Source: Chloroflexota bacterium
Lineage (GTDB): Bacteria; Chloroflexota; Anaerolineae; J036; Brachytrichaceae
Assembly (NCBI GenBank): GCA_023488685.1
Contig: JAMDDR010000084.1
Span: forward strand, 1,916 to 65,915
Length of the DNA: 64,000 nucleotides
Direction of reading: 5' to 3'
Positions 5,491 to 52,366 of this stretch are shown here, piece by piece (position 1 is the stretch's first letter; each line of letters opens with the position of its first letter). The translations under genes and the position numbers were made by a program. A model generated the notes under the pieces. It did no database searches. It worked only from the letters and a program-made list of their open reading frames with translations, and had not been told where the DNA came from.

Positions 5491-6897
5491 TCATCTGCCC
5501 GTGCAAAACTCGTGTACCACTTCGTACAAGACCTGCACGCCCCAGGCCAGCGACTCGACTGACACGCGCTCGTCATGCCCGTGCACCAGATCGCTGAAAT
5601 GCTCGCCTGGCCGGAACTTCAGCGGCGAGAAGCCGTAACAAATGGTGCCGAGTTTTGCCACGTGCTTTGCGTCAGTCGCGCCGGTGAGCATTGACGGGAT
5701 CGGAAGACCGGCCGGATCATGCCGTTTTAACGTCTGGCATAGCAGACGGTAAAGCGGCGTGTTCGTCCCAAATTCGACCGCCGGGGACAGGCTATCGACC
5801 TCGAAGGTGACGTTGCCGGCATCGTTTCCGAGCGTGTGCTTGATCTCGTCGATCATTTCGGCAGGGCTGAAGCCCGGCAGTGTACGGCAGTCCAGCACGG
5901 CATCCGCGAATGAGGGGATGACGTTCGTTTTCACCCCGGCGCGCAAACCGGTCGGTGTCGCCGTGTTATGGGTGATGGCGCGCAATTCGGCCGCCAGACC
6001 GGGATCACGCACGATGTGTTCGAAAAGAGGCGAGCCACTCGAGTCGCGTGAAGCAAGCAGCGCACGCAACCCGGCGCCCTGTGGGCCACCCAGACCGTCG
6101 GCCAGTCCGGCGATAAATGCTCGTGCGGTTGCGCTCATGTGCATTGGAAAGCGTGCCCGCGAGAGTTTGTCCACGGCCCGTGCCAGGTGTACCACCGCGT
6201 TATCGTCATGCGGCACACTGGCATGGCCGGGGCGGCCGGATGTGCGCATGCGCATCCAGGCTGTCCCTTTTTCAGCCACCTGGATGGGATAAAAGCATTT
6301 GCCGGAGGCGTACATCGAGAATCCCCCGAACTCGCTCAGACCATATTCGGCGCGCAGCAAATCGGGGTGGCATTGAATCAACGGGCCGATGCCCTGATCG
6401 GTGTCCGTCTCCTCATCGGCGGTTGCGGCCAGGATGATGTCTCGTTGCAAAGGTGTGTGACCTGCTTTGCTGACCTGGCGGGCCAGCGTCAGGAACGCGA
6501 CTAATTGCATGGCGCCAATGCCCTTCATATCGAGTGCGCCGCGGCCATATACGTAGCCGTTGTGCAACATGCCGCCGAAGGGGTCGACTGTCCAGTGCTC
6601 ACGTTCGACCGGTACCACGTCGGTGTGGGAATAGAGTAGCAGAGGCGCGGCGTTGCCATTGCCCTTAAGCCGTGCAACCACGTTGCCGCGCCCCGGTGCT
6701 GTCTCGATGACAGTCGGTTCGATGCCATTCTCGTGCAGGATGTTGGCGATGTACCCCGCCGCGATGCTTTCGTTCCCGGGTGGGTTGGAGGTATCGAGGC
6801 GAATCAATGCCTGTAACACGCGCACCGTTTCATCTGCCATTGCATTCCAGTTTACGTCGACCATGTATGCATTGTGCCACAGGCTGGCATCAGACAT
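5491..6897 (-). CDS. M20 family metallopeptidase (ArgE/DapE/ACY1/CPG2-like)
   Basis: LLLYSHTDVVP, GRGALDMKG and ADEETD motifs. I trimmed the start to ATG 6897 (MSDASLW...) because the longest ORF (7059) would overlap the divergent proS start. Confidence 0.8.
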   Translation of the reverse strand: MSDASLWHNAYMVDVNWNAMADETVRVLQALIRLDTSNPPGNESIAAGYIANILHENGIEPTVIETAPGRGNVVARLKGNGNAAPLLLYSHTDVVPVEREHWTVDPFGGMLHNGYVYGRGALDMKGIGAMQLVAFLTLARQVSKAGHTPLQRDIILAATADEETDTDQGIGPLIQCHPDLLRAEYGLSEFGGFSMYASGKCFYPIQVAEKGTAWMRMRTSGRPGHASVPHDDNAVVHLARAVDKLSRARFPMHMSATARAFIAGLADGLGGPQGAGLRALLASRDSSGSPLFEHIVRDPGLAAELRAITHNTATPTGLRAGVKTNVIPSFADAVLDCRTLPGFSPAEMIDEIKHTLGNDAGNVTFEVDSLSPAVEFGTNTPLYRLLCQTLKRHDPAGLPIPSMLTGATDAKHVAKLGTICYGFSPLKFRPGEHFSDLVHGHDERVSVESLAWGVQVLYEVVHEFCTGR

Positions 6898-7034
6898 GTG
6901 TCGCACGGTTCGTGTGCGTATAATCCTTGCACGCGCTTGCGTGCAAGCGTTGCCGGCAAGGGTCTGGCCCAATGGGCGATCGTTACTGGCAGCAATATGC
7001 GCACCAGTCGCAAATCGACAAACAGAAATCCAAA

Positions 7035-8465
7035 ATGGCAAAGATAACCCCACGTTCAAAAGACTTTTCCGAGTGGTATCTGGACGTCATCCGAGAAGCA
7101 GACATGGCCGATTACGCGCCGGTGCGCGGGTGCATCGTGGTCAAACCGTACGGCTGGTCTCTCTACGAGAACATGCGCGATTTCCTGGATCGGCGTTTTA
7201 AGGAGACCGGCCACAGCAATGCCGCTTTCCCGTTGTTCATCCCCATGAGCTTCTTGCAGAAAGAGGCGCAGCATGTAAAGGGATTCAGCCCTGAATTAGC
7301 AGTCGTCACGATTGGAGGCGGCGAGACACTGGAGGAGCCGCTGGCAGTGCGCCCGACGAGTGAAACCATCATCGGATCAATGTATGCGCAGTGGGTCAAG
7401 TCCTATCGTGATTTGCCGGTGCTTATCAATACCTGGAACAGTGTGGTGCGGTGGGAGAAGCGCACCAAGCCGTTCTTGCGGACGATGGAGTTTTACTGGC
7501 AGGAAGGTCACACCGCTCACGCCACGCACGACGAAGCGATGGAAGAAGTGTTGCGGATGCTGGGCGTGTATGCGGACCACGCCTCCGAGGAATGTGCCAT
7601 CCCAGTTATTCAGGGTCGTAAGAGCATCAGCGAGCGCTTCGCCGGTGCCGACAACACATTCAGCATCGAAGCGATGATGGGTGATAAGAAGGCGTTGCAG
7701 GCGGGTACCAGTCACGACCTGGGTCAGAACTTCGCGCGAGCATTTGAGATCAAATACCTGGACCGCGATAACACGGAGAAACTGTGTTGGACGACATCGT
7801 GGGGGATGAGTTGGCGTATGTTGGGCGCCGTCATTATGACCCACGGCGATGATCAGGGTCTGCGTCTGCCACCCAAGATTGCGCCTGTCCAGGTGGTCAT
7901 CGTGCCCATCTATAAAAACGATACCGAGAAGAGCAGTGTGTTCGAAACGGCCGAGCGTATCTATAAGGAGATAAAAGCGGCTGGTTTACGTGTCAAACTG
8001 GATGATCGCGAGGAGACGCCCGGGTTTAAGTTCAACGATTGGGAGATGCGCGGTGTGCCGGTGCGGGTGGAGATCGGCCCCAAGGATGTTGCAAATCGCG
8101 CGGCTGCATTGGCGCGCCGTGATATTCCTGGGAAAGCAGGTAAAAGCTTCGTTCCCCAGGACGGCCTGGTGCAGCGCGTCCAGGTGTTGCTGGTTGAAGT
8201 TCATAACTCGTTGCTGCAACAGGCTACTGCCTTTCGCGATGCCAACATTCATGAAGTCAATACCTACGAGGAGTTAAAGGAAGTGGTGGAGGATGGCTTC
8301 GCCCTGGCTCCGGTGGCGGACGATCCTGAAGTGGATGCCAAGATCAAGGAGGAGACCAGGGCTACCAACCGCAACTTCCCGACGCAACAGGCGGCAGGGG
8401 AGTGGAAATGCATCATCACTGGCAAACCAGTGCGTGAACGGGCGCTGTTCGGTAAGGCCTACTAA
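7035..8465 (+). CDS. proS: prolyl-tRNA synthetase, archaeal/eukaryote-like type
   Basis: MAKITPRSKDFSEWYLDVIREA..., RPTSETIIG and WNSVVRWEKRTKPFLRTMEFYWQEGHTAH. There is no bacterial INS editing domain, and the C-terminus ends ...FGKAY. About 476 aa from ATG 7035. Confidence 0.9.
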   Translation: MAKITPRSKDFSEWYLDVIREADMADYAPVRGCIVVKPYGWSLYENMRDFLDRRFKETGHSNAAFPLFIPMSFLQKEAQHVKGFSPELAVVTIGGGETLEEPLAVRPTSETIIGSMYAQWVKSYRDLPVLINTWNSVVRWEKRTKPFLRTMEFYWQEGHTAHATHDEAMEEVLRMLGVYADHASEECAIPVIQGRKSISERFAGADNTFSIEAMMGDKKALQAGTSHDLGQNFARAFEIKYLDRDNTEKLCWTTSWGMSWRMLGAVIMTHGDDQGLRLPPKIAPVQVVIVPIYKNDTEKSSVFETAERIYKEIKAAGLRVKLDDREETPGFKFNDWEMRGVPVRVEIGPKDVANRAAALARRDIPGKAGKSFVPQDGLVQRVQVLLVEVHNSLLQQATAFRDANIHEVNTYEELKEVVEDGFALAPVADDPEVDAKIKEETRATNRNFPTQQAAGEWKCIITGKPVRERALFGKAY

Positions 8466-8576
8466 AATCATCCTCGCGGCTGGCTATGCGCGAACGGTGT
8501 GGAGTATGCTTTTCGCCAGTTGCTCGCCCATAAAACGGCGGGCAATGTTCGTTTGAGCGCCTGTTAAAATGGCGCT

Positions 8577-8747
8577 ATGCATGCGGTCGAAACGTTGATG
8601 CTCGCGGATGCGGCACAGATGATGACCGACCCTCAAGCGCCGTTGTCGATCGACGTGCAAGAACCATGGGAATATGCCTATGCCCACATTGAGGGGGCAC
8701 AACTCCGGCCGTTAGGTGACCTTCAACAGTGGCTTGTTGAGGTTTGA
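8577..8747 (+). pseudogene. truncated rhodanese-like domain remnant (56 codons, below the ORF-track cutoff)
   Basis: My translation is MHAVETLMLADAAQMMTDPQAPLSIDVQEPWEYAYAHIEGAQLRPLGDLQQWLVEV*. It matches the first half of single-domain rhodaneses (..lIDVRep.Ey..gHI.GA..iPl.eL). It stops before the active-site Cys loop, and its stop overlaps the GH3 start. Confidence 0.45.
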
Positions 8748-11740
8748 AGCTGTTCATGATGCGTCGCCGAACAAAGATCACAAAGATCATCAATTACACG
8801 TTGCTTGTACTGGCTGTCGTGCTTGCTCTTGGCGCGTCTTCGCTCGTGCCGCTGTCCACCCGTGCGCAGACGGCGACGCCGCCGCCTACCTACGCCAAAA
8901 CCATTGCAGCGCTCATCAAAGGCATGAGTGTTAACCAGAAAGTCGGGCAACTTTTCCTGGTTAGTTTTCCGGGCGAGGACACCGCACCCAATAGCGATAT
9001 TGCCGACCTCATTGTCAACTACCGTGTTGGCGGGGTGTTGTTGCGCGCTGCCAACCAAAATATCACGAATTCGCCTGAAGGTCCACAGCAACTCGCGGAA
9101 CTTACGAGCCGGCTACAGTCACTTGCACTGATGACGCAGACTGTTGCGTCGAGTGCGCCCACGGTGACGCCTACAACCCAGGGATCGACGAAGGCATTGC
9201 CACCCGAGGTGGGATTCATCCCGCTTTTCATCGCTATGTCACAGGAAGGGGATGGCGCACCCTATACTGAGGTCACGCAAGGCGTTACGCCCATCCCCAG
9301 CCAGCTTGCTATTGGCGCTAGCTGGCAAGTAGAGAATGCGAATGTTGTTGGACAGGTGGTTGGGCGTGAGCTATCGTTGATGGGTGTGAATGTCTTGTTG
9401 GGACCCGTCTTGGATGTGTCGGACTCCCCGAAGCCGACCACGCCGGGCGATGCCGGCACACGGGTCTTCGGCGGCGATCCGTACTGGGTCGGTAAGTTTG
9501 GCGGGGCTTATATCAGCGGGGTTCACACCGGCAGTAACAACCGCGTTGCCGTCGTCGCCACCCGTTTCCCCGGACTGGGTTCATCAGATCGCAGTGTCGA
9601 CGACGAGATCCCCACGGTGCAAAAGTCGTTGGAACAGCTCAAGCAGATCGAGCTGGCTCCATTCTTCGCCGTGACACAGCTTGACAACAATAACCCCGTC
9701 TCCAGCACGGCGGATGGGCTGTTGGTATCGCACATCCGCTATCGCGGCTTCCAGGGCAACATCCGCGCCAGCACACGCCCAGTGAGCCTGGATCCACAAG
9801 CCTACCAGGCGCTAATGTCGTTGCCCGAAATTGCACCCTGGCGTGCGGCCGGCGGGGTTACTTTTAGCGACGCACTGGGTGTGCGCGGGGTGCGGCGTTT
9901 CTACGATCCGTTGGATAACACCTTTAACGCGCGGCGTGTGGCACACGAAGCATTCATGGCCGGCAACGACGTGCTGGTGTTGGGCAATTTTGGCCTTAAC
10001 AATTCCTGGCCAGAGCAACTGGCGAACATCAAAGACACCATCCAGTTTTTCCGCGAACGCTACGTGAGTGACCAGACATTTGCGGCGCGTGTGGACGCGG
10101 CGCTGGGACGCATCCTGGCATTGAAACTGAAGCAGTACCAGGGCACATTTACGAGCGCGACGGTAAACGTTGACCCGGCGCTTGCCGCGCAGATCGTGCC
10201 GAATACCGACGTCGTTTCTGCCATCGCGAAGGATGCTGTGACGTTGCTGTCGCCGGGGGTTCGTGAGCTGACTCCACTTGTGCCCGCCGCACCAGGTAAA
10301 GACGAATCGATCGTGTTCATTACCGACGACCGCCAGATCAAAGAGTGTGCGAAGTGTCCCTCGTATCCGCTCATCTCACGCACGGCGCTGGAGGAGATTG
10401 CGCTTAACCTGTACGGTCCAAAGACTACGGGTCAACTGAACCCGCTGCGTGTCTCGTCGCTCACTTTCAGCGATCTCGCCGATTACACAGTACGAGTGGC
10501 GGCAGGCCCCAGCGCTACCGGGTCGCTGACGGAGACGGAAACCGCCACGTCGCTCACCGCGACCACCTCGGGTGTGACGGCGACGGCGACGGTGGCGCCT
10601 CCGCTGGTTCAGACGGCGATAGACCAGGCGGATTTGATCGTCATTGCCATGCTTGATCTGAGTACAGATGCCAAATCCGCCAAGATCTTTCGCGATTTCC
10701 TGGCGCAGCGAGCAGATGCATTGCGCGATAAGCGGGTGGTGGTGTTTGCGTTTGGCGCGCCCTACTACCTGGACACAACAGAGATCAGCAAGCTGACGGC
10801 CTACTTTGGGGTTTACAGCCATGCGCAGCCGTTCCTGGAAGCGGCTGTGCGCGTGCTGTTTGGCGAAATCCCACCGAATGGCGCCTCGCCGGTCTCAATT
10901 ACTGCGTTGAACTATTCTCTCTTGCAACAGACTGCCCCTGACCCAAACCAGGTGATTCCACTGAGCGCGGGCGATCTCATTACGACCACGCAGGTCAGTG
11001 AAGGGCTGCTGGAACTGAAAATAGGTGAAAAGCTGAAATTGCGCGCAGGCCCGGTGTACGACCGGAATGGCCACATCGTACCGGATGGCACGCCCGTTCA
11101 ACTCGTGTTAGCTTACCCGGCAGAGCGAGTGGAACAGCAACAACCGGCGGTCTCGACGCGTGACGGTATCGCAGAGACGACTGTGGTCATCGAGCGGAAA
11201 GGCAAGCTTGAGATTCGGGCGGTTGCGGAGCCAGCGCAAACTTCCTACGTGATCCGTGTGGATATCGGCGATAATGCGGCCTCCATTGAGACGATCAAAC
11301 CCACCGCGATGCCTACGGGAACACCGGAGCCGACAGCGACCGCAACTGACAAGCCGACTGCCGAGGCGACGAGCGCGGCAACGCCTGCAGTCACGAACCA
11401 GCCGCCTGCTCAGATCGTGCGGTCCAATATCGTTGGCTTTGTGGTTACGTCCCTGGCATTGGTCGTCATTGCGCTGGTGGCGATCCTCACACTGAACGGC
11501 ACCCGGCGCGTGAGTCTGTCCATGCGTTGGCGTCTGATACTGCTGAGTTGGAGCGCGGGTTGGATCGCCTATGTGCTGTATGCAACCGGGGTGCCCGGCA
11601 CCACTCAACTGGCATCCATCCTGGGGTGGTATGGCTCGGTGTTGCTGGCTGCTGTGATCGCACTCATCGTCTTACTGGTTGCGCTGGTGATTGTGATGCG
11701 CGCCGAAGAAGGTCCTGCAGAACCTATCGGTGGGCATTAG
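8744..11740 (+). CDS. glycoside hydrolase family 3 (NagZ/beta-hexosaminidase-like N-domain), N-terminal signal anchor and C-terminal multi-TM anchor
   Basis: 998-aa ORF with KVGQLFLVSF, GPVLDV and RFPGLGSSDRSVDDEIP (GH3 N-domain). A hydrophobic N-terminal segment is present. The C-terminus has a Pro/Thr/Ala-rich linker followed by 3-4 hydrophobic helices. Confidence 0.8.
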   Translation: MKLFMMRRRTKITKIINYTLLVLAVVLALGASSLVPLSTRAQTATPPPTYAKTIAALIKGMSVNQKVGQLFLVSFPGEDTAPNSDIADLIVNYRVGGVLLRAANQNITNSPEGPQQLAELTSRLQSLALMTQTVASSAPTVTPTTQGSTKALPPEVGFIPLFIAMSQEGDGAPYTEVTQGVTPIPSQLAIGASWQVENANVVGQVVGRELSLMGVNVLLGPVLDVSDSPKPTTPGDAGTRVFGGDPYWVGKFGGAYISGVHTGSNNRVAVVATRFPGLGSSDRSVDDEIPTVQKSLEQLKQIELAPFFAVTQLDNNNPVSSTADGLLVSHIRYRGFQGNIRASTRPVSLDPQAYQALMSLPEIAPWRAAGGVTFSDALGVRGVRRFYDPLDNTFNARRVAHEAFMAGNDVLVLGNFGLNNSWPEQLANIKDTIQFFRERYVSDQTFAARVDAALGRILALKLKQYQGTFTSATVNVDPALAAQIVPNTDVVSAIAKDAVTLLSPGVRELTPLVPAAPGKDESIVFITDDRQIKECAKCPSYPLISRTALEEIALNLYGPKTTGQLNPLRVSSLTFSDLADYTVRVAAGPSATGSLTETETATSLTATTSGVTATATVAPPLVQTAIDQADLIVIAMLDLSTDAKSAKIFRDFLAQRADALRDKRVVVFAFGAPYYLDTTEISKLTAYFGVYSHAQPFLEAAVRVLFGEIPPNGASPVSITALNYSLLQQTAPDPNQVIPLSAGDLITTTQVSEGLLELKIGEKLKLRAGPVYDRNGHIVPDGTPVQLVLAYPAERVEQQQPAVSTRDGIAETTVVIERKGKLEIRAVAEPAQTSYVIRVDIGDNAASIETIKPTAMPTGTPEPTATATDKPTAEATSAATPAVTNQPPAQIVRSNIVGFVVTSLALVVIALVAILTLNGTRRVSLSMRWRLILLSWSAGWIAYVLYATGVPGTTQLASILGWYGSVLLAAVIALIVLLVALVIVMRAEEGPAEPIGGH

Positions 11741-11783
11741 GTGGTTATACCACTGTCAAGGGCTTCTAAACGAGGTTATAGCA

Positions 11784-12134
11784 ATGGGATTTCTCAAACG
11801 ACTCTTTGGCGGCGACTCTAAACCAGGTAGCCGCGGTAGTGACGCTGATTCAAATGCGATCATCTACTACGTAAAGGTGCGCAAGTGCGGCGCCATTGCA
11901 CGCGTGCGCGTGGATACTCGCAACGACCTGAGCCTCGACGATGATGGCGAGAACTATGTCGTGCGCAAACAGGTCGTTGACAACGTCTGTTACGGCATGG
12001 CCGAGATTGAGCTGCACTTCGATGTCAATCGTAAAGAACTGAGCCGTCACGTGGAGAACGGCGAGTTTGTGTCACACGAGGTGTGGGAACAGCAGGAACA
12101 GGAACGAAATGCCGCACGCTCTTCAAATGCTTGA
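11784..12134 (+). CDS. hypothetical small protein
   Basis: 116-aa ORF from ATG 11784 (MGFLKRLFGG...). No motif recognised. It is followed by a strong terminator. Confidence 0.45.
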   Translation: MGFLKRLFGGDSKPGSRGSDADSNAIIYYVKVRKCGAIARVRVDTRNDLSLDDDGENYVVRKQVVDNVCYGMAEIELHFDVNRKELSRHVENGEFVSHEVWEQQEQERNAARSSNA

Positions 12135-12219
12135 CGCGAGAGCCTGATCTTAGTCGCTGCTGCGAGGATTCCGCAAGTCCTTGACGGCACTTATCAGTTT
12201 GGTAGAAGGGGTGCCGTTG

Positions 12220-12259
12220 GCGAGACCATCACGAATAGATGTGATGGTCTCGCTTTTTT
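12220..12259 (+). terminator. rho-independent terminator
   Basis: Perfect 13-bp stem GCGAGACCATCAC / GTGATGGTCTCGC with an 8-nt loop, then TTTTTT. Confidence 0.75.
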
Positions 12260-12329
12260 GCGCGCGACGAATGGCGCTGGCAAGCCTGACGACGAAACGG
12301 GGTGGTCAGGCGCGTGCGATAATGATTGC

Positions 12330-13388
12330 ATGAATGATAGCCAGCCCGCCGCATTGATGCGACGTGAAATCTTCGAACAACCAACCATTCTTTCTCATTT
12401 GATCGACAGCGCTGGCGCCACACTGCGAACGGTAGCCGAACGTGCCAGCCAATGCGCATTCGCGGTGTTGGCTGCGCGTGGCAGTAGCGACAATGCCTCC
12501 ACCTATGGCAAGTACTTGCTGGAAAGCCTGGCCGGCCTGCCAACGGCACTCGCCGCACCGTCGCTCTTTACGCTCTACAGGCAACCGCCGCGCCTGGCAG
12601 GCGCACTCGTCATCGGTGTATCTCAGAGCGGGCAGTCAGCCGATGTCGTGGAGGTGTTACGGCAAGCCCGCCAGCAGGGGGCCATAACACTCGCAGTCAC
12701 CAACACGCCTGATTCGCCACTGACCGCAGCCGCCGAGTACGTCGTGCTGCTCAATGCGGATGTGGAGCAAGCCCTCGCTGCGACAAAAACGGTGACGGCC
12801 CAATGCGCCGTTTATGCGTTGCTGGCAAGTCTGCTGAGTCGCCGTGCCGATCTGTCCCGTGACCTTGCCTCCTTGGGGGAGCATGTTGACCGTATGCTGG
12901 CGCGAGAAGCCGATATTGCGGCGCTCGCACAGGGCTGGTTGACGGCTGAGCGTGCGGCAGTGATTGGACGCGGGTACAGTTATGGGGCGGCACAAGAAAC
13001 CGCGCTTAAGCTTAAGGAAACGTGCTACATCAGCGCCGAGCCGTACTCCGCGGCCGACTTCATGCATGGCCCATTAGCCATGATCGAGCGAGATTATCCG
13101 GTGTTGGCAATGCTCAACCACGATGCAACGCTTGACACCACGGTTGCATTTGTCGAGCGGGTGTGTGATAGGGGTGCAAAGGTGGTGGTATTCGCCACGG
13201 CTGAGGCCGCGCGATCCATATCACTGCCACATCAGGTCACTACGTTGCCAATCGCCAGTCCATCCCTGTGGTTGGCGCCGATCCCTTTCATCGTGGCCGG
13301 GCAACTGTTTGCAATGCATCTTTCGGTCGCGCGTGGGTATAACCCCGATGTTTCGCGCGGTCTGACCAAAGTGACTGTGACGGTATAG
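12330..13388 (+). CDS. double-SIS-domain sugar-phosphate isomerase/deaminase (GlmS isomerase-domain-like, no glutaminase domain)
   Basis: MRREIFEQP, ARGSSDNA and GVSQSGQSADV motifs. The C-terminal NPDVSRGLTKVTVTV resembles the GlmS/NagB-II/FrlB tail. The start was set to ATG 12330. Confidence 0.75.
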   Translation: MNDSQPAALMRREIFEQPTILSHLIDSAGATLRTVAERASQCAFAVLAARGSSDNASTYGKYLLESLAGLPTALAAPSLFTLYRQPPRLAGALVIGVSQSGQSADVVEVLRQARQQGAITLAVTNTPDSPLTAAAEYVVLLNADVEQALAATKTVTAQCAVYALLASLLSRRADLSRDLASLGEHVDRMLAREADIAALAQGWLTAERAAVIGRGYSYGAAQETALKLKETCYISAEPYSAADFMHGPLAMIERDYPVLAMLNHDATLDTTVAFVERVCDRGAKVVVFATAEAARSISLPHQVTTLPIASPSLWLAPIPFIVAGQLFAMHLSVARGYNPDVSRGLTKVTVTV

Positions 13389-45197: not shown

Positions 45198-46106
45198 TTA
45201 ACCGTTCGCCCTGCAGATCAGGCAGACCCAATCCGTGATTTGATTGCGCTCGATCAGCGTCAACCCTGAGCGAGTGATGGCGGCGCTTACCTCATGGACT
45301 TGCGTGTCGAGGATGCCGGAGAAGATAAACTGTCTCCCCAGGCGCGCGAGGCCACTATCAAGCATGCGAACAATGACTCCAGCGAGGATATTCGCCACCA
45401 CCACGTCGTAGACACCGGTTGCCCGATCGAACGAGCCGTGCTCGATCGTGACGCGATTGCTGACCCCGTTCTGAGCGACGTTTTCACGGCCGGCTCGGAC
45501 GGCTTCTTCATCAGTGTCCACACCCAGGACTTCGTTGGCGCCGACCTTGGCGCCAATGATGGAGAGCACAGCCGATCCGCACCCAACATCCAGCAGTCGT
45601 GCACCTGGTTGCACTTGCTCCGCGATGGCTAATGCGCAGAGTTGGGTGGTGGGGTGGAGACCGGTGCCGAAAGCAAGGCCTGGATCGAGCGCGATGACGA
45701 TATCGCCCGGCTGCGGTTCGACGTCAATCCAGGAGGGACGGATGAGGATGTGGTTGCCGATACGCAGCGGCTTGAACGACACCTTCCATGCCTCCGCCCA
45801 ATCGGCCTGTGCGATGGACCGGTAGCTGGGCATGGGCACAGGTTGCACCAGATTGAGACAGCGCAATGCGTACTCGACGTTCTGCCGTCGCTCTTCGAGT
45901 GTCTTATCCATTGGCAGGTAGGCGCGTACGATGACGGGTCCGGTGACGGTTTCCTCCTCCCACCGATCGACCGCCCGATCGTATGAGTTCAACTGCTCGG
46001 CAGCGACGCCGCCTTCTACGTAGGGGAAAATAGCTTCGCTGATCGCTTCGGCAAGCTCGCTGCTGGTCTCGATGGAAAGTTCAAGCCACTGCTGGTTCGT
46101 TGTCAT
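45198..46106 (-). CDS. prmA: ribosomal protein L11 methyltransferase
   Basis: 302 aa with the PrmA N-domain, LLDVGCGSAVLSI and VVANILA. Confidence 0.85.
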   Translation of the reverse strand: MTTNQQWLELSIETSSELAEAISEAIFPYVEGGVAAEQLNSYDRAVDRWEEETVTGPVIVRAYLPMDKTLEERRQNVEYALRCLNLVQPVPMPSYRSIAQADWAEAWKVSFKPLRIGNHILIRPSWIDVEPQPGDIVIALDPGLAFGTGLHPTTQLCALAIAEQVQPGARLLDVGCGSAVLSIIGAKVGANEVLGVDTDEEAVRAGRENVAQNGVSNRVTIEHGSFDRATGVYDVVVANILAGVIVRMLDSGLARLGRQFIFSGILDTQVHEVSAAITRSGLTLIERNQITDWVCLICRANG

Positions 46107-46166
46107 TGTGCGTGGATTGTATCAATCATCCATCGTTTCGCTTCTGAAACACATCACGATCTACGA

Positions 46167-48281
46167 ATGACACCCAGTACAATACGTCTTATGACGACAG
46201 AGCGATATCCACCGTCATGCTACATCAACCGAGAATTGAGCTGGATCGAGTTCAACGAACGGGTTCTACGTGAGGCTGCTGATCCGACTCATCCGCTGCT
46301 GGAACGGGCGAAATTCCTCGCCATCTTTGCCACCAACCTCGATGAGTTCTTCATGATCCGCGTTTCGGGTTTAAAGAAGCAGATTGAAGCCGAGGTGGTC
46401 GACGTAACCCCGGATGGGAACACGCCCAACGCAACCTTAGACCACATCGTGGCAAAGTTGACGCCATTGCTGGTCGAGCACTCACGGGTGTGGAACGACG
46501 AGGTGAAGCCGCTGCTGTGTAGTCATGGTGTGTGTGTGCTCGGTTACGATGAACTAAACGAGGAGCAACGCACTCGCGCAATCAGATACTTCGATAGTGA
46601 GGTGTTCCCAGTCCTCACGCCACTGGCGTTTGACCCAGGCCATCCCTTCCCACATATCAGCAACTTAAGCCTCAACCTCGCCGTGGTGGTGCTGGATGAA
46701 AAAGGGCGTGAACGTTTTGCGAGGGTAAAGGTGCCGCCATCACTGCCGCGGTTGGTGCCACTCACCGATTGTCCGGATGACGAGTGCGGGCACTGCTTCG
46801 TGTGGCTGGATCAGGTGATAGCCGCCAATATTGCCGCGCTGTTTCCCGGGATGGCTGTGCAACGCACCTATGCCTTTCGCGTCACACGCGATACCGATAT
46901 TGAGATCCAGGAGGACGAAGCCGGCGACCTGCTATCGACCATCGAACGTGTGATGCAAGACCGCCGCTTCGGTTCGGTCGTGCGGCTGGAGATTGCCCAC
47001 GATATGCCCGACCGCGTGCGCGACATTTTGATTCAGAACCTCGAAATTGACCTGCGTGATGTCTACCGTGTGGATGGAACGCTCAGTCTGAGCAGCCTGA
47101 CGGAATTGCTGCGGCTGCCTCTCCCGAAGCTCAAGGATCCGCCATTCACTCCGCACCCGCCTTTTGTGCTGGCCGACAATGGTGAGGACGTCTTCAGTCT
47201 GGTCCGGCAGGGCGATATTCTGCTGCACCATCCGTATGACGCGTTTTCCCCAGTGGTGGACTTCATTAGTGCGGCGGCGCGCGATCCGCAGGTGCTGACG
47301 ATCAAGGTTACCCTGTACCGAGTTGGTGCGAATTCGCCCATCGTGCAGGCGTTGATCGAGGCGATTCAGAATGGAAAACAGGTCGCGGTCCTGGTTGAGC
47401 TGAAGGCTCGCTTTGACGAGGAGAATAATATACAGTGGGCCCGCGCATTGGAAGATGAGGGTGTGCACGTGGTCTATGGATTGCCAGGCCTGAAAGTACA
47501 CTGTAAGGTGGCGCTGGTCGTACGGCGCGAACATGATCGCATCCGCCGCTACGTGCACCTAAGCACCGGCAACTATAACGCGACCACTGCGCGCATTTAC
47601 ACCGACCTGGGCATATTCACCTGTCGAGACGATATTGGGGAGGATGCCTCGGATCTGTTCAACCTGCTGACGGGTTACTCGCGCCAGCGCGAATTCCGGC
47701 AGTTGTACGTCGCGCCGGTCAATCTGCGCAAGAGGTTGATCGACTTGATTGAACGCGAGATCGAGCTGCATAAACAGTACGGTGGTGGTCATCTCATCTT
47801 TAAGATGAACTCGCTGGTCGATCCGGCGATGATCAATGTGTTGTACTGCGCCTCGCAGGTTGGCATCAAGGTTGACCTCATCGCGCGCGGCATCTGTTGC
47901 CTGCGGCCGGGCATGTCTGGGATCAGCGATAACATCCGTGTGATTAGCATCGTAGGGCGCTTCCTGGAGCACAGCCGCGTATACTATTTCCGTAACAACG
48001 GCGACGAGGAACTGTTCGTCGGCAGTGCCGACCTGATGCCACGCAACCTGGATCGGCGCGTGGAGACGGTCTTTCCCATTCTCGATGCCGATCTGCGCAA
48101 CCGTGTGCGGGATGAAGTATTACTCCTACAGTTGCGCGACAATGTGAAGGCACGCGAACTCAACTCGGACGGTTCATATTGCCCCGTGGCATCCTGGCCA
48201 GGCGAGCCGCGCATCAATAGTCAAGAGGAGCTACTAAGAAGGGCGGGACAAATGGGTTATCTGTCCTATCTGCCACTATGA
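46167..48281 (+). CDS. ppk1: polyphosphate kinase 1
   Basis: 704 aa with YINRELSWIEFNERVL and two PLD-like HKD regions (VHCKVALVVRRE, LEHSRVYYF). Confidence 0.9.
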   Translation: MTPSTIRLMTTERYPPSCYINRELSWIEFNERVLREAADPTHPLLERAKFLAIFATNLDEFFMIRVSGLKKQIEAEVVDVTPDGNTPNATLDHIVAKLTPLLVEHSRVWNDEVKPLLCSHGVCVLGYDELNEEQRTRAIRYFDSEVFPVLTPLAFDPGHPFPHISNLSLNLAVVVLDEKGRERFARVKVPPSLPRLVPLTDCPDDECGHCFVWLDQVIAANIAALFPGMAVQRTYAFRVTRDTDIEIQEDEAGDLLSTIERVMQDRRFGSVVRLEIAHDMPDRVRDILIQNLEIDLRDVYRVDGTLSLSSLTELLRLPLPKLKDPPFTPHPPFVLADNGEDVFSLVRQGDILLHHPYDAFSPVVDFISAAARDPQVLTIKVTLYRVGANSPIVQALIEAIQNGKQVAVLVELKARFDEENNIQWARALEDEGVHVVYGLPGLKVHCKVALVVRREHDRIRRYVHLSTGNYNATTARIYTDLGIFTCRDDIGEDASDLFNLLTGYSRQREFRQLYVAPVNLRKRLIDLIEREIELHKQYGGGHLIFKMNSLVDPAMINVLYCASQVGIKVDLIARGICCLRPGMSGISDNIRVISIVGRFLEHSRVYYFRNNGDEELFVGSADLMPRNLDRRVETVFPILDADLRNRVRDEVLLLQLRDNVKARELNSDGSYCPVASWPGEPRINSQEELLRRAGQMGYLSYLPL

Positions 48282-49831
48282 ATACCATCATTGGACTTGA
48301 CATCGGCGGTACCAAGACCGCTGTGCTCGAAGGGACGTATCAGGCTGAGATCTTTCAAAGACGTGAGATACCCACACAGGCCAGCGACGCATTCGACGTG
48401 ACGTTCGAGCGCATCTGCGCCGAGATTGATGTCGTGCTCGACGCAGCGCGCCAGGCCGGTCATCACGTGGACGCCCTCAGCGTATCGATCGGTGGGCCGC
48501 TCAAGATAGGCGAGGGGATCATCCTGTCGCCCCCGCACCTGCCGAACTGGGTCAATGTGCCACTCAAGCGCCTGTTGGCGGATCACTACAGTTTGCCGGT
48601 TCACGTCGAACACGACGGTAACGCCGGCGCATTGGCGGAGCATTACTTTGGCGCGGGACGCACAGCCCAGAATGTCATCTTTCTCACCGCCGGCACTGGA
48701 CTCGGCGGTGGACTCATCTTAAACGGACGCATCTACCGTGGCGCGACGGACACGGCTGGCGAAGTGGGGCATATCCGTCTTGCGGACAGCGGCCCGGTCG
48801 AATACGGTAAAGCGGGTTCGTGGGAGGCGTTCTGCAGCGGTGCGGGCATGGTGAAACTGGCGCACGCGCTGTACCCTGGGCGTTGGCCGGAGTCGTTGAC
48901 TACCCGCGAGCTTGTCACGCAGGCGCTCGACGGCGACGAACAGGCCAGCCAGGTGATCCGCGAGTCGGGCCAGTGGTTGGGCCGCGGGCTGGCGATCCTG
49001 ATCGATACCCTCAACCCCGACGTGATCGTGCTGGGCAGCCTGGGTGGCGCACTGGGTGATTTATACCTGGAGCCGGCACGCGAGGTGGTTCGAATGGAGT
49101 GTCTGCCGCAACCCGTGGCTGCCTGCCGCATTGTGCCCGCAGCGTTGGGATCTCGCCTGGGTGATGTGGCTGCGCTCATGGCTGCTATTAGTGCTGTTGA
49201 GACGGGTGAAGTGCAGCAGTTGTCTGGGGCAGCCAGTTTATCGTCTCCGGGCAAGGTGCCCGGAGAGGCCTCTGGTGCTTTTGCCGAGGCGCTCGCAGAC
49301 AGTCTGCGTGTGCAGGCCATGCTCGACGAGATCGCCGACGTCATCGAACGTTCTGCGATCGTGATCCGCCAGTCACTCCAGGAAGGGCACAAGGTGATCG
49401 TGTTCGGAAATGGCGGCAGTGCTGCGCAGGCACAGCACCTGGCTGGTGAGTTGGTTGGCAAGTTCGGGCCGGTGCGCAAGTCATTACCCTCCATTGCGCT
49501 GACTGCCGACTCGGGTGTGGTCACCTGCATCGCCAATGACTTCGGCTATGACCAGTTGTTTTCTCGCCAGGTGGAGGCATTTGCGCAGCCGGGTGATATT
49601 GCCATCGGCATCACGACCAGCGGCAAATCACCCAACGTGCTGCAGGCTCTCGATGTTGCGCGCGAACGGGGTGCAGTCACCATTGCAATGACGGGTGAGC
49701 GTGGACTGGTCGGTTCGCGCGCCGATTACATGGTGGCCGTGCCGAGCAACAGCACGGCGCGCATCCAGGAGGGTCACGCCTTCATCGTGCACTACTGGTG
49801 CGACGTGATCGACGCGGCATTTGTAAAGTGA
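48278..49831 (+). CDS. fusion protein: ROK-family sugar kinase (N-terminal) + SIS-domain phosphoheptose isomerase GmhA/DiaA-like (C-terminal)
   Basis: The N-terminus has IGLDIGGTKTA, DGNAGALAE, LTAGTGLGGGLI and GEVGH. The C-terminal ~190 aa has VFGNGGSAAQAQHLAGELVGKF, GITTSGKSPNVL and EGHAFIVH. The ATG overlaps the ppk1 stop (ATGA). Confidence 0.75.
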   Translation: MNTIIGLDIGGTKTAVLEGTYQAEIFQRREIPTQASDAFDVTFERICAEIDVVLDAARQAGHHVDALSVSIGGPLKIGEGIILSPPHLPNWVNVPLKRLLADHYSLPVHVEHDGNAGALAEHYFGAGRTAQNVIFLTAGTGLGGGLILNGRIYRGATDTAGEVGHIRLADSGPVEYGKAGSWEAFCSGAGMVKLAHALYPGRWPESLTTRELVTQALDGDEQASQVIRESGQWLGRGLAILIDTLNPDVIVLGSLGGALGDLYLEPAREVVRMECLPQPVAACRIVPAALGSRLGDVAALMAAISAVETGEVQQLSGAASLSSPGKVPGEASGAFAEALADSLRVQAMLDEIADVIERSAIVIRQSLQEGHKVIVFGNGGSAAQAQHLAGELVGKFGPVRKSLPSIALTADSGVVTCIANDFGYDQLFSRQVEAFAQPGDIAIGITTSGKSPNVLQALDVARERGAVTIAMTGERGLVGSRADYMVAVPSNSTARIQEGHAFIVHYWCDVIDAAFVK

Positions 49832-49883
49832 CACGATGGAATTGACCAGGGACACCTTTTCCCTGGTCAATCGTCATAGCAGG

Positions 49884-49968
49884 TAGGGCGGGTGGGACTC
49901 GAACCCACACGCTACTTTCGTAGCAGAAGATTTTAAGTCTCCGGCGTCTGCCATTTCGCCACCGCCCC
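49884..49968 (-). tRNA. tRNA-Leu (anticodon UAA), class II with a long variable arm
   Basis: Hand-folded from the minus strand: acceptor GGGGCGG/CCGCCCU (G1:U72); D arm GCG-AAAUGGCAGA-CGC; anticodon arm GGAGA-CUUAAAA-UCUUC; variable stem GCUAC-GAAA-GUAGC; T arm GUGGG-UUCGAGU-CCCAC; discriminator A. Confidence 0.85.
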
Positions 49969-50050
49969 GAGAATACCCTCGCGCGCGTTCGTCCTGCCGT
50001 GGCAGTTATGATCGCGTGTGAAAATTGTAGCACGGACGCAGCTAATTTCA

Positions 50051-51346
50051 ATGGAAGATCGACAAGCCGCATCGTTTACGGAATCCGATACAAAACCTTC
50101 GCTGCGCAACTTCTTGGCATTGGTGGCCGAAAAGGCCTGTTTCATCCTTGCCATGTCGTTGGCCGGCCCTTTCACGGTACTGACGGCGCTCGCTACGCAA
50201 CTGACCACTTCGACGGTTGTGATTGGGTCGGTCACGACGGTGTGGAATGGTGCGCTTTTTGCTCCGGTGATGCTCATCGCGCGCTGGATTCGTGGGCACC
50301 CCGAGCGCATGCCCATCATCCGGCGCGCGACGCTGGTGCGAGGCATGGCGTTTCCGCTGGTTGCCGTGTGGCTCTTTCTGACGCATGCGCAGAATCTCAC
50401 CCTGACGCTGGCAGTGCTGCTCATTGGGATGCTGATGTTCTGCGTCGCCGACGGTTTTGTGGCGGTGCCGTACGTCGATGTCATTGCGCGCGTGCTCACG
50501 TCGCGCGAACGGGCGCGCATGGTGTGGCAAGGTTTGCTCTTGGGCGGTGTACTGAGTATCGCCGGCAGTCTGGCTGTGCAGTACATTCTGACGCCTGGCG
50601 TGGTTGCATTTCCGTTCAACTTCGGCGTTTTACTGGCATTCGCCGGTGTGTTCTTTCTTTCAGCAGGGCTGGCGTTGCGGTTCATCCCGGAAGCCGATGT
50701 GCAGGCGATGCGGCCGCACCAGGTGCTCGTGGATGGATCGACCGGCCCACGTCGTGCGCACGACATTGTCCGGCAGGATGCGGCTTTTCGCCGTATGTTG
50801 TTGACACGTCTTCTGACAGGTGCAGATCAGATGGCGTTTCCGTTCTACACGGTGTTCGCGCTCAATGTATTGCACCTGTCGCCTGAATCGGTGGGCGTGT
50901 TTGTTGGTGCACAGACACTCGGCTCTTTGATAGGCCCGGCTGTGTTCGGGCGGGTGGCGGAACGATCCGGCCCACAACGGGTCATACAGCTTTCGGCGTT
51001 TATGCAATGTCTGGCACCCTTGCTAGGCTTGTTGTTTACGCTGGCATTAGGAGCTCATCCTTCACTCAGCCTGGGCATTGCCGGCGCGTTCGTCGTGGCG
51101 GGATTGAGCATGAGCAGTATGTCGCTCGGTTACTTCAACTACCCGCTGGATTGGTGTCCCGACCATGATCGCCCCACCTACGTTGGGTTGCTGAGCCTTG
51201 CCGGTGCAGCGCTCATGCTTGCACCGGTTCTCGGCGGCTTCATCGTCCAATATGTGTCCTATGCAGCGCTCTTTGCCATGACGGCTTTCCTGGTCGGCGC
51301 GGGTGTGCTGGTCAGTCTGACATTGCCGGATAAGCGATCTCACTAG
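50051..51346 (+). CDS. MFS-type transporter
   Basis: About 12 hydrophobic segments. The start was set to ATG 50051 (MEDRQ...); the longest ORF starts at 50018. Confidence 0.65.
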   Translation: MEDRQAASFTESDTKPSLRNFLALVAEKACFILAMSLAGPFTVLTALATQLTTSTVVIGSVTTVWNGALFAPVMLIARWIRGHPERMPIIRRATLVRGMAFPLVAVWLFLTHAQNLTLTLAVLLIGMLMFCVADGFVAVPYVDVIARVLTSRERARMVWQGLLLGGVLSIAGSLAVQYILTPGVVAFPFNFGVLLAFAGVFFLSAGLALRFIPEADVQAMRPHQVLVDGSTGPRRAHDIVRQDAAFRRMLLTRLLTGADQMAFPFYTVFALNVLHLSPESVGVFVGAQTLGSLIGPAVFGRVAERSGPQRVIQLSAFMQCLAPLLGLLFTLALGAHPSLSLGIAGAFVVAGLSMSSMSLGYFNYPLDWCPDHDRPTYVGLLSLAGAALMLAPVLGGFIVQYVSYAALFAMTAFLVGAGVLVSLTLPDKRSH

Positions 51347-51358
51347 GGCTGAGATTGC

Positions 51359-52366
51359 TCAGCGCAGGTCAATCATGTGTTCGAAAAGTTTACCTGTCTC
51401 CACGATGGTCACCGGCGCTTCGGTCGTCTGCTCTACTTTTGCGATCAGCGCCTTGATGGCCGGCGTCAATTGATCTGCCCCGGTAACACCTGTGATCTGA
51501 GGATCATAATGATCGCAGAACGTCAATGCGATCTCTGTCGGCCCATTCAACATCGCGGCATACCGCAGCATATCCCAGGGGATGCCCTCTGCTTTGCGGC
51601 GTAAACGCCCAGTGACCACCCCGTATTCTGCGATACCTCGGCGCCGGATCTCATCTGGGCTTATCTCACCCGGCAATGGCCCCGCGCCAACACGCGAAGG
51701 TACCGCTTTGACGACCATCACTGCTCCGCTCACCTTGCGCCAGTTGAGGCCAACGTCGTCGACCGCGGCAGCCACGGTGCAGTTGCCGGAGGTTACATAC
51801 GGATAATCCGGTGATAGGGCTAACGATGGATAAGTCCCCTGAGACGACTCGACGACGACCGTGTTCACACTGGCTTGTTCGTTCGCCAACTGCGCCACAT
51901 CCGCCAGGTATGGTTTGAGAACGTCGACATCTTTTGCCTGTTGGGCTTTGCGCAAGGCAAAGTCAGCCTGTGCCATACCTGATCCACTGGCCGTGGTGCC
52001 CACCGTTTGCACGAGGTGGGTATTATCGCGTTCCCGTTGGATATGCTCAGGGGTGATGATCGGGCACCGATAATCAACCTTGACGCGTTCCTGCAGATGG
52101 TAGCGCGTCACTTCATCGTTAAAAATGCGTGGGTCGACAGCGACACCCGATCCAACGGCAACCACGGTGGTGGGATGTAGAAAACCCAGGGGCAACTGGC
52201 GTGTGCGAATCGACTCTTCTGCAGTGAGATAAACACTGTGCCCGGCGTTCGTGCCTATGCCGGCACGCACACACAATGTTGCATTCTCACGCTGTGTGAG
52301 AAAAGCGGCCACTTTGCCTTTGCCAGAATCGCCCCAAAGTGCATCGACGACGATGATCGCTCCCAA
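51359..52366 (-). CDS. adenylosuccinate synthetase-like protein, short (archaeal-length) form
   Basis: 335 aa with ALWGDSGKGK (P-loop; canonical is GDEGKGK) and GTNAGHSV. TTG start with GAAGGAG 7 nt upstream. Confidence 0.6.
   Translation of the reverse strand: MGAIIVVDALWGDSGKGKVAAFLTQRENATLCVRAGIGTNAGHSVYLTAEESIRTRQLPLGFLHPTTVVAVGSGVAVDPRIFNDEVTRYHLQERVKVDYRCPIITPEHIQRERDNTHLVQTVGTTASGSGMAQADFALRKAQQAKDVDVLKPYLADVAQLANEQASVNTVVVESSQGTYPSLALSPDYPYVTSGNCTVAAAVDDVGLNWRKVSGAVMVVKAVPSRVGAGPLPGEISPDEIRRRGIAEYGVVTGRLRRKAEGIPWDMLRYAAMLNGPTEIALTFCDHYDPQITGVTGADQLTPAIKALIAKVEQTTEAPVTIVETGKLFEHMIDLR

Follow-up and report, generated by a model that had tools for sequence, protein, structure and literature searches.

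Sugar kinases of the ROK family and phosphoheptose isomerases of the GmhA type belong to well-known protein families. ROK hexokinases and glucokinases, such as the T. thermophilus hexokinase (3vov), S. griseus GlkA (3vgk) and the N-acetylmannosamine kinase domain of human GNE (MNK, 2yhw), have in common their fold, a DxGxT motif, a catalytic Asp, an ExGH motif, a conserved Glu and a Cys-rich zinc motif (CxCGxxGCxE). This last motif is absent from FnNanK of F. nucleatum and from other NanKs, in which the active-site architecture is nevertheless conserved (PMC5458393). GmhA (e.g. B. pseudomallei 2xbl and 2x3y, E. coli 2i22, C. jejuni 1tk9) is a free protein of about 195 aa with the same SIS_2 fold as DiaA, from which it can be told by an "E-QH" rule, the catalytic Glu being lost in DiaA and HobA (PMC4697000); a passage in PMC11056994 places zinc in the GmhA active site. 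Here we describe the union of these two kinds of enzyme in a single gene of a Chloroflexota bacterium (assembly GCA_023488685.1), found in a stretch of 64,000 nt of contig JAMDDR010000084.1 (positions 1,916 to 65,915; hereafter the window, from whose first nucleotide its features are numbered). The gene (P0001; 48278..49831, + strand), defined by its open reading frame (ORF), its translation and Pfam matches to ROK and SIS_2, encodes 517 aa and lies directly downstream of ppk1.

The fusion is genuine, with both halves intact; it recurs, and it has so far gone uncharacterised. Both of its domains come from known families. Its kinase half shares with the ROK enzymes listed first the fold and all the features named above except the zinc motif, but it has a His in place of an Asn, is only about 30% identical to them and falls into a separate, tightly conserved subfamily, whose members are 55-80% identical between phyla. 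The zinc-free ROK kinases (F. nucleatum NanK 5nck; Listeria Lmo2764/BglK 4htl; S. aureus NanK 6q26), which likewise lack CxCGxxGCx(E/D), are structural matches of its predicted model; they are, however, distant in sequence (E 5e-27 or weaker) and carry no fused SIS domain, whereas the protein from the window has a conserved loop, GP.EYGK.GSWE, and such a domain. The isomerase half keeps the GNGGS and TTSG.S.NV motifs, the His/Glu/Gln/His set and the ND loop of GmhA. Unlike GmhA, it is the C-terminal domain of a kinase, is encoded outside a lipopolysaccharide or capsule cluster, and has Gln, at a position variable in the family, instead of Asp61 (B. pseudomallei numbering).

The initial annotation of this locus, made from the sequence by itself, knew of no described ROK-GmhA fusion, and the searched literature likewise contained no paper on a fusion of ROK with phosphoheptose isomerase (GmhA), nor one mentioning, in the terms searched, the catabolism or utilisation of heptose or sedoheptulose. 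Among the matches listed, the literature on "sedoheptulose kinase" dealt mainly with the animal FGGY enzyme SHPK/CARKL. Also new is the observation that the zinc-free ROK kinase ("EHDGNAG...GSWE") is a widespread standalone family, present in at least seven phyla and coexisting with ordinary glucokinases.

The kinase and isomerase domains

Residues 1-310 (48278..49207, +) constitute a ROK sugar-kinase domain of the zinc-free subfamily (PF00480, residues 5-295, 181.5 bits against a Pfam gathering score of 22.9). ROK glucokinase-type models of NCBIfam rank first for this part of the protein, the closest solved relative is 3vov (E 4e-37), and a Foldseek search with the predicted model gave template modelling (TM) scores, normalised to the target, of 0.81-0.87 to ROK kinases. 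DxGxT, the catalytic Asp and the Glu and His of ExGH are all present in alignments with 3vov, 3vgk and 2yhw. The DxGxT motif, as defined in PMC5458393, corresponds to D8-I-G-G-T12 (within DIGGTK, residues 8-13), and among 47 fusions G11 is invariant and D8, G10 and K13 are nearly so. D113, aligned with the catalytic Asp of all three structures, is invariant in the same set; it lies in the active-site loop EHDGNAGALAE (residues 111-121; 48608..48640, +), recognised from the same alignments, of which E111 and the whole of D113-L119 are invariant. In the ExGH motif (E162-V-G-H165, within GEVGH, residues 161-165) both E162 and G164 are invariant. The glycine loops of the kinase are also invariant or nearly so, and the sequence GTGLGGG occupies residues 139-145.

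In place of the zinc motif of 3vov, 3vgk and 2yhw, the fusion has the loop GPVEYGKAGSWEAF (residues 172-185; 48791..48832, +). In the segment V-EYGKAGSWE, the places of the three motif Cys are taken by V/E, Y and S, while the Glu following the motif is kept as E183. None of the aligned family members has a Cys in this segment, in which G180 and E183 never vary, and W182 hardly ever, whether the kinase is fused or standalone. The sugar-binding Asn preceding the catalytic Asp, whose role is described in PMC5458393, is replaced by His112, which is itself nearly invariant. Since the key positions are invariant or nearly so in the 47 fusions, the domain represents a conserved variant and not a product of decay; and since the zinc motif is dispensable in some active ROK kinases (PMC5458393), it is to be regarded as an atypical member of the family and not as a non-member. 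Judged by its residues, the kinase domain appears catalytically intact, and neither a pseudokinase nor a repressor. Two fusion homologues differ: P0080 has degenerate kinase motifs (NITRSE for DIGGTK, ETNGN for EHDGN), and P0072 reads NICGSK and EPDGN at the same places, with the GmhA motifs intact in both, and these two proteins may be pseudokinase derivatives.

The domains are joined by a Ser/Gly/Ala/Pro-rich linker (about residues 314-334; 49217..49279, +), delimited by homologue alignment and by the predicted local distance difference test (pLDDT), whose length and sequence differ among homologues. Two confident domains appear in the AlphaFold2 model (mean pLDDT 89.5; 47 full-length homologues as input), in which the linker (residues 314-330) is below pLDDT 50, and its predicted TM score of 0.61 fits two domains without a fixed mutual orientation.

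The GmhA-type SIS domain, about residues 335-517 (49280..49831 with the stop codon, +), matches SIS_2 of Pfam (residues 345-473, 89 bits), and the top-ranked NCBIfam models for it are those of phosphoheptose isomerases. The scores, 169 bits for gmhA (TIGR00441; trusted cut-off 209) and 180 bits for PRK13936 (cut-off 276), lie below the thresholds; no GmhA anywhere in the order to which the organism belongs reaches the equivalog cut-off, so that this threshold is strict for the phylum. With B. pseudomallei GmhA 2xbl the domain shares about 40% identity (E 2e-43), and the corresponding part of the model matches GmhA with TM scores (target) of 0.80-0.85 in Foldseek. The motifs FGNGGSAAQAQHLAGEL and TTSGKSPNV occupy residues 376-392 and 446-454. 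H387, E391, Q497 and H505 align with residues of the B. pseudomallei enzyme that presumably are its zinc ligands and catalytic residues, and all four are invariant in the 47 fusions; the zinc-ligand and catalytic set thus seems to be retained. The DiaA model gave 125 bits against a cut-off of 352, the similarity to DiaA sequences (E 2e-35) is weaker than that to GmhA, and the Ser found in DiaA at the position of the catalytic Glu (PMC4697000) contrasts with Glu391 of the fusion. By these features the C-terminal domain is GmhA-like, not DiaA-like.

Several statements of the initial annotation could thus be substantiated. The 517-aa product with its ROK and GmhA-type SIS domains and intervening linker was recovered with Pfam, NCBIfam and AlphaFold2, all the motifs quoted for it are present in the translation, and replacement of all three Cys of the zinc motif was confirmed by alignment to solved ROK kinases. 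The annotation had also considered that the ROK domain might lack catalytic residues, as a pseudokinase or repressor would; these residues are retained.

Recurrence and distribution of the kinase-isomerase link

The association between zinc-free ROK kinases and GmhA-type proteins was classified in 94 ROK loci. A canonical-type GmhA is fused to the kinase or encoded immediately downstream in 21 of them, while a second, insertion-bearing GmhA-like gene stands immediately upstream in four, and in five this second type is the C-terminal fusion partner of a GSU2086-family protein of the same operon; no GmhA-type gene lies close to the kinase in 63. Mapped on a maximum-likelihood ROK-domain tree, the fused or downstream state takes five changes or more. 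The two genes are also found side by side as separate units, with either one first, and a natural split was found within the synteny of the window itself (locus L058), where a 309-aa ROK is followed, after a gap of 19 nt, by a 198-aa SIS protein. The second GmhA-like lineage (L055:7396-8957 in genome G199; L082:7965-9707; L128:7953-9567; L094:7953-9459) has about 20 additional residues following the GEL motif, with 73-81% identity among the Chloroflexota loci and 48% in L055. Moreover, an independent ROK::GmhA fusion is present in another Chloroflexota genome (L053:5995-9398, genome G397), whose ROK domain keeps the canonical CACGRLGCLE. The at least five changes on the tree and this separate fusion of a Cys-motif ROK indicate that the link is recurrent and not the accident of one lineage: zinc-free ROK kinases have repeatedly come to be fused to, or to lie beside, GmhA-type domains in Chloroflexota and a few Acidobacteriota. 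The L053 fusion is directly preceded by a homologue of a GH31-like 572-aa protein of locus L003, possibly in one open frame of 963 aa.

In a search of 5.8 billion proteins, about 85 of the best 120 clusters had the ROK+SIS_2 architecture (roughly 500 aa, 46-95% identity), the named ones belonging to Chloroflexota (Thermoflexales, Anaerolineae, Phototrophicaceae). The architecture is therefore common in metagenomes but not already characterised; the initial annotation would have taken its being both as a refutation. The named homologues bear no label other than "ROK family protein" or "glucokinase". A survey of the order, based on GTDB representatives (50 genomes, one family), located the fusion in ten genomes beyond that of the window, distributed over two genera, of which one is the window's own; in one further genome of this genus the gene is apparently split or cut at a contig end, and a third genus of the order has a standalone ROK orthologue. 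When 400 genomes were sampled evenly across the phylum, matches at E <= 1e-60 were obtained in six besides that of the window, one of them spanning both domains. Related records include Candidatus Roseilinea mizusawaensis and metagenome-assembled genomes of Thermoflexales. Between 60 and 100% of the sampled words from positions 46167-49831 were found in mine-tailings and sediment metagenome contigs from two studies; one of these runs probably represents the sample from which the DNA came, and the runs listed included none of RNA.

A scan with the conserved peptides of the family, using one genome per species, returned at least 561 genomic matches to zinc-free ROK relatives in at least seven phyla, with representatives in Acidobacteriota, Planctomycetota, Bacteroidota, Kryptoniota, Rhodothermota, Gammaproteobacteria and Chloroflexota. 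The best 80 of these are 52-79% identical to the ROK domain of the window and mostly about 310 aa long, and the standalone relatives that were checked share the EHDGNAG and GSWE signatures. In genomes with the standalone kinase a canonical ROK is also present that scores higher, and two of five have Glk as well; the zinc-free enzyme is hence not their sole glucokinase, and the role of a sole or housekeeping glucokinase was rejected for it. A GmhA-type gene exists somewhere in nine of ten further ROK-bearing genomes (fusion genomes have one by definition), and the five diderm genomes among these ten also have HldE. This fits a scheme in which diderms pair a lone ROK kinase with their housekeeping GmhA, while Chloroflexota bring their own.

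Genomic partners and gene neighbours

Distant fusions (53-63% identity) adjoin genes for LacI regulators, glycoside hydrolases (GH), PfkB kinases, HAD hydrolases and class II aldolases, and the carbohydrate-related partners in distant loci comprise LacI, GH38, GH63/mannosylglycerate hydrolase (MGH)-like, GH3 and GH172 proteins, an SSF symporter and FGGY kinases. One context has a LacI gene immediately 5' of the kinase-isomerase pair, accompanied by GH38, a GH31-like protein and a class II ketose-bisphosphate aldolase that is encoded divergently. Another is an operon whose products are a GSU2086-family protein, a PfkB kinase, a capped HAD hydrolase and ROK, joined in some cases by GmhA; it occurs in several Chloroflexota and one Terriglobia genome (L074:1664-11472, L080, L129, L087, L006:3174-7557, L008:2238-8504, L071:6724-11388) and is often flanked by genes for an FGGY kinase, a GH63/MGH-like protein and a phosphodiesterase. 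Its PfkB kinase scores 147-157 bits with the HldE heptose-7-phosphate kinase domain and 59-66 bits with ribokinase, which points to the chemistry of seven-carbon (C7) sugars. The GSU2086-family protein (NF052581) has a DHS/ArgZ-like Rossmann domain and in many cases ends in a GmhA-like SIS domain; in the literature GSU2086 is mentioned in one unrelated transposon-sequencing paper. In L008 a LarC (Ni_insertion) gene lies 3' of this operon.

The third context (e.g. L094) combines a class II ketose-bisphosphate aldolase (TIGR00167), a kinase of the 1-phosphofructokinase (1-PFK)/LacC type (TIGR03168), both over cut-off, a GmhA-like gene and ROK. This is the layout of a classical catabolic route, leading from a sugar through sugar phosphate, ketose phosphate and ketose bisphosphate to aldol cleavage. 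Because the partners include a GmhA-type isomerase and an HldE-like kinase, the most parsimonious guess at the substrate is a sugar of seven carbons. The genome from which the window comes (82.5% complete) yielded no orthologue of the GSU2086 family, the HldE-like PfkB, the HAD hydrolase, the GH31-like protein or the 1-PFK type.

In the window, the gene preceding the fusion is ppk1 (46167..48281, +; identified from the ORF list, Pfam and NCBIfam), encoding a polyphosphate kinase 1 of 704 aa with strong matches to the four PPK1 domains of Pfam (PP_kinase_N, middle, C_1 and C_2) and 873 bits, over cut-off, with TIGR03705. Direct reading of the sequence verified that, as initially annotated, the stop codon TGA of ppk1 and the start codon ATG of the fusion gene share the tetranucleotide ATGA (48278..48281, +), and given this adjacency and overlap the two genes are probably co-transcribed in this organism. 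Each of the 12 related loci examined in the Thermoflexales/Roseilinea lineage has ppk1 immediately before the kinase gene and in the same orientation, and in the 11 with long enough contigs there follow, beyond ppk1 and as in the window, the divergent prmA (here 45198..46106, -; PF06325, 248 bits) and a string of LLM, DegV and RecG genes. The ATGA overlap is peculiar to the genome of the window, since in the relatives (L042 left out) 11-126 nt separate the ppk1 stop from the kinase start. The adjacency is confined to two genera of the family and their metagenomic kin, and no ppk1 was found near the more distant fusions or standalone orthologues that were examined.

On the other side of the fusion gene lies a co-directional gene for an MFS transporter (50018..51346, +; PF07690, 63 bits), possibly part of one transcription unit with it. 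Orthologues (55-58% identity) are directly 3' of the fusion in the same-genus loci L040-L042 and none is downstream in L043; a profile comparison of the transporter revealed no informative subfamily. A scan of positions 45900-51600 gave promoter and terminator counts not above those of shuffled sequence. On the opposite strand, a 277-aa ORF (49933-50766, -) that runs across the start of the MFS gene has no Pfam match and is probably spurious, the region being rich in GC, and a short adenylosuccinate-synthetase-like ORF of 335 aa (51359-52366, -) matches Pfam in two stretches. The glycosylation cluster upstream in the window encodes enzymes of the GT-C/PMT type.

The same genome has, on contig C34 (L001 coordinates 5587-12609), a cluster of the GDP-heptose type, with an HddA-like GHMP kinase, a Bac_transf initiating transferase, a 446-aa GmhA::NTP_transferase fusion, a GmhB-type HAD protein, a Wzz/ParA-type tyrosine kinase and a low-molecular-weight phosphotyrosine phosphatase. 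Its gene content suggests that this Chloroflexota organism may produce a heptose-containing exopolysaccharide. The cluster resembles the ROK::GmhA fusion in using a GmhA-type isomerase, but its GmhA is joined to a nucleotidyltransferase and is 34% identical to the GmhA domain of the fusion. The two are also distributed independently, as the HddA orthologue is missing from five of the ten other fusion genomes of the order (four of these five without a second GmhA), while many genomes of the order have it without the fusion; the latter is consequently no obligatory part of the GDP-heptose pathway.

Possible functions and their significance

The explanation that we favour is that of a bifunctional enzyme, in which a flexible linker would hold together a zinc-independent ROK sugar kinase and a GmhA-type isomerase of aldose and ketose phosphates that is catalytically intact. 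The kinase would use ATP to phosphorylate the terminal primary hydroxyl of a free sugar, and the GmhA domain would then interconvert aldose phosphate and ketose phosphate. The protein would thus act as a two-step entry module bringing a free sugar into central metabolism, a reading to which we assign a rough probability of 0.45. A seven-carbon sugar is the most likely class of substrate, although on sequence evidence we hold this with less confidence than the logic of the module. The route could run from D-glycero-D-manno-heptose via heptose-7-phosphate to sedoheptulose-7-phosphate (S7P) and the pentose-phosphate pathway, or from sedoheptulose to S7P in exchange with heptose-7-phosphate; in the organism of the window, which is without the extra partners, S7P would go straight into the pentose-phosphate pathway. 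The order of the steps and the direction, salvage or catabolism as opposed to biosynthesis, are likewise deduced from the kind of domains and partners involved.

The immediate neighbours of the gene led the initial annotation to two other ideas. According to one of them, the ROK domain is a polyphosphate-dependent sugar kinase for which PPK1 supplies the phosphoryl donor. The overlapping, co-directional genes speak for it, as does the constancy of the arrangement in the lineage, split version included, and so would the known polyphosphate glucokinases, which we take to be ROK-family proteins likewise devoid of the Cys motif. These are proteins of about 240-270 aa, and beyond the common superfamily the resemblance is limited: Arthrobacter PPGMK (1woq) aligns only to the N-terminal half (residues 4-167, E 2e-10), and the model of polyphosphate-glucose phosphotransferases (NF045942) reaches 38 bits, over residues 5-170 only, against a cut-off of 250. 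In addition, the ROK subfamily is 55-62% identical across phyla regardless of the ppk1 context, and, ppk1 always being inside the RecG-DegV-LLM-PrmA-ppk1 block, its adjacency is inseparable from inherited gene order. The conservation of the adjacency, raised in the annotation as a point to check, is thus real within the lineage and does not extend to the distant fusions examined; together with the overlap it reflects lineage-specific gene order, not a family-wide functional link with polyphosphate. Such coupling is unlikely in the lineage of the window, and as a general explanation we consider it highly improbable. The other idea was that GmhA makes heptose-7-phosphate and the ROK domain replaces HldE or HddA as the anomeric kinase of NDP-heptose synthesis, supplying the glycosylation cluster upstream. 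The intact GmhA domain agrees with it, and the most conserved distant operon, with its HldE-like kinase and HAD protein, resembles the first ADP-heptose steps. In such operons, however, an HldE-like kinase beside ROK would be redundant, the kinase domain has the ROK fold and not the PfkB or GHMP fold of HldE/HddA-type enzymes, and to our knowledge ROK kinases phosphorylate a terminal primary hydroxyl and not O1. The search for GmhB, HddC or HldE-type partners that the annotation proposed led to the complete cluster on C34, where kinase, nucleotidyltransferase and GmhB are already assembled; half of the other fusion genomes do without HddA, and most of those without a second GmhA; no nucleotidyltransferase is linked to the fusion; and the upstream cluster is of the GT-C/PMT type. 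We therefore give little credence to this role, of which the connection with heptose chemistry survives in a different form.

An alternative that stays closer to the entry module would make the ROK domain a mannokinase and the GmhA-type domain a mannose-6-phosphate isomerase (PMI), interconverting mannose-6-phosphate and fructose-6-phosphate for the use of mannosides. The reaction of GmhA, from S7P to a manno-configured heptose-7-phosphate, is the C7 homologue of that of PMI, a GH38 alpha-mannosidase gene lies beside the fusion in two related loci, and a GH63/MGH-like gene comes after ROK in the GSU2086-type operon. Yet the two GH38 loci are close relatives (their LacI proteins are 73% identical) and not independent, the HldE-like partner points to C7, and the domain, about 40% identical to bona fide GmhA, keeps all the catalytic residues. 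The possibility that it replaces a missing PMI was rejected, as fusion-bearing genomes, including that of the window and others of its genus, have a strong class I ManA (about 250 bits, over cut-off), which leaves no PMI gap to be filled. On balance we regard the mannose module as unlikely. A metabolic coupling might also be absent altogether, if a general hexokinase or glucokinase paralogue had been fused to GmhA by chance in one lineage: most orthologues are standalone proteins in housekeeping contexts (e.g. after the ATP synthase operon), and the nearest solved relatives are glucokinases and hexokinases. This is difficult to reconcile with a link that recurs in fused, split and reversed forms and involves both a second GmhA-like lineage and another ROK lineage, with the at least five changes on the tree, with the canonical ROK glucokinase of genomes that have the zinc-free enzyme, and with the exchange of the sugar-binding Asn for a nearly invariant His, and we find chance fusion very improbable.

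Several observations weigh against a heptose entry module. Given that 63 of the 94 loci have no GmhA nearby and that their contexts are housekeeping-like, the core substrate of the kinase need not be heptose, and the GH38 and GH63/MGH-like neighbours suggest mannose in preference to a C7 sugar. As GmhA models score under their trusted cut-offs (169 versus 209 bits for TIGR00441), the domain may not be a strict equivalent of GmhA. Co-occurrence of ROK and GmhA in diderms is weak, nearly uninformative evidence, because diderm phyla generally have the ADP-heptose pathway anyway. Finally, in the lineage of the window conservation among co-directional neighbours is limited to ppk1 and, in some members of the genus, the MFS gene, and a polyphosphate link keeps a small probability there; the absence of the other partners from its genome is itself a weak argument, the assembly being 82.5% complete.

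Heptoses are major components of the bacterial envelope, and ADP-heptose is an innate-immune signal. If the entry module acts on these sugars, the kinase and GmhA-type isomerase could open an undescribed route of heptose salvage or catabolism, continued in some Chloroflexota by the 1-PFK-type kinase and class II aldolase, which would convert S7P through sedoheptulose-1,7-bisphosphate into dihydroxyacetone phosphate and erythrose-4-phosphate. Monoderm Chloroflexota might in this way feed on the envelope heptoses of other bacteria, while diderms would recycle heptose with a lone kinase and their housekeeping GmhA; we offer this picture tentatively and consider it rather doubtful in its entirety.

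The locus also carries a caution for context-based annotation, in that the stop/start overlap with ppk1 looked like a functional link, yet the adjacency is conserved within the synteny block of one lineage only. The conserved kinase-isomerase module provides a concrete and cheap enzymological handle on a heptose or sedoheptulose kinase, and it draws attention to a large zinc-free ROK subfamily now labelled "glucokinase" or "ROK family protein" although its hosts have canonical glucokinases. The larger novelty, if the proposal is true, would lie in the substrate of this widespread subfamily and in a heptose salvage or catabolic route.

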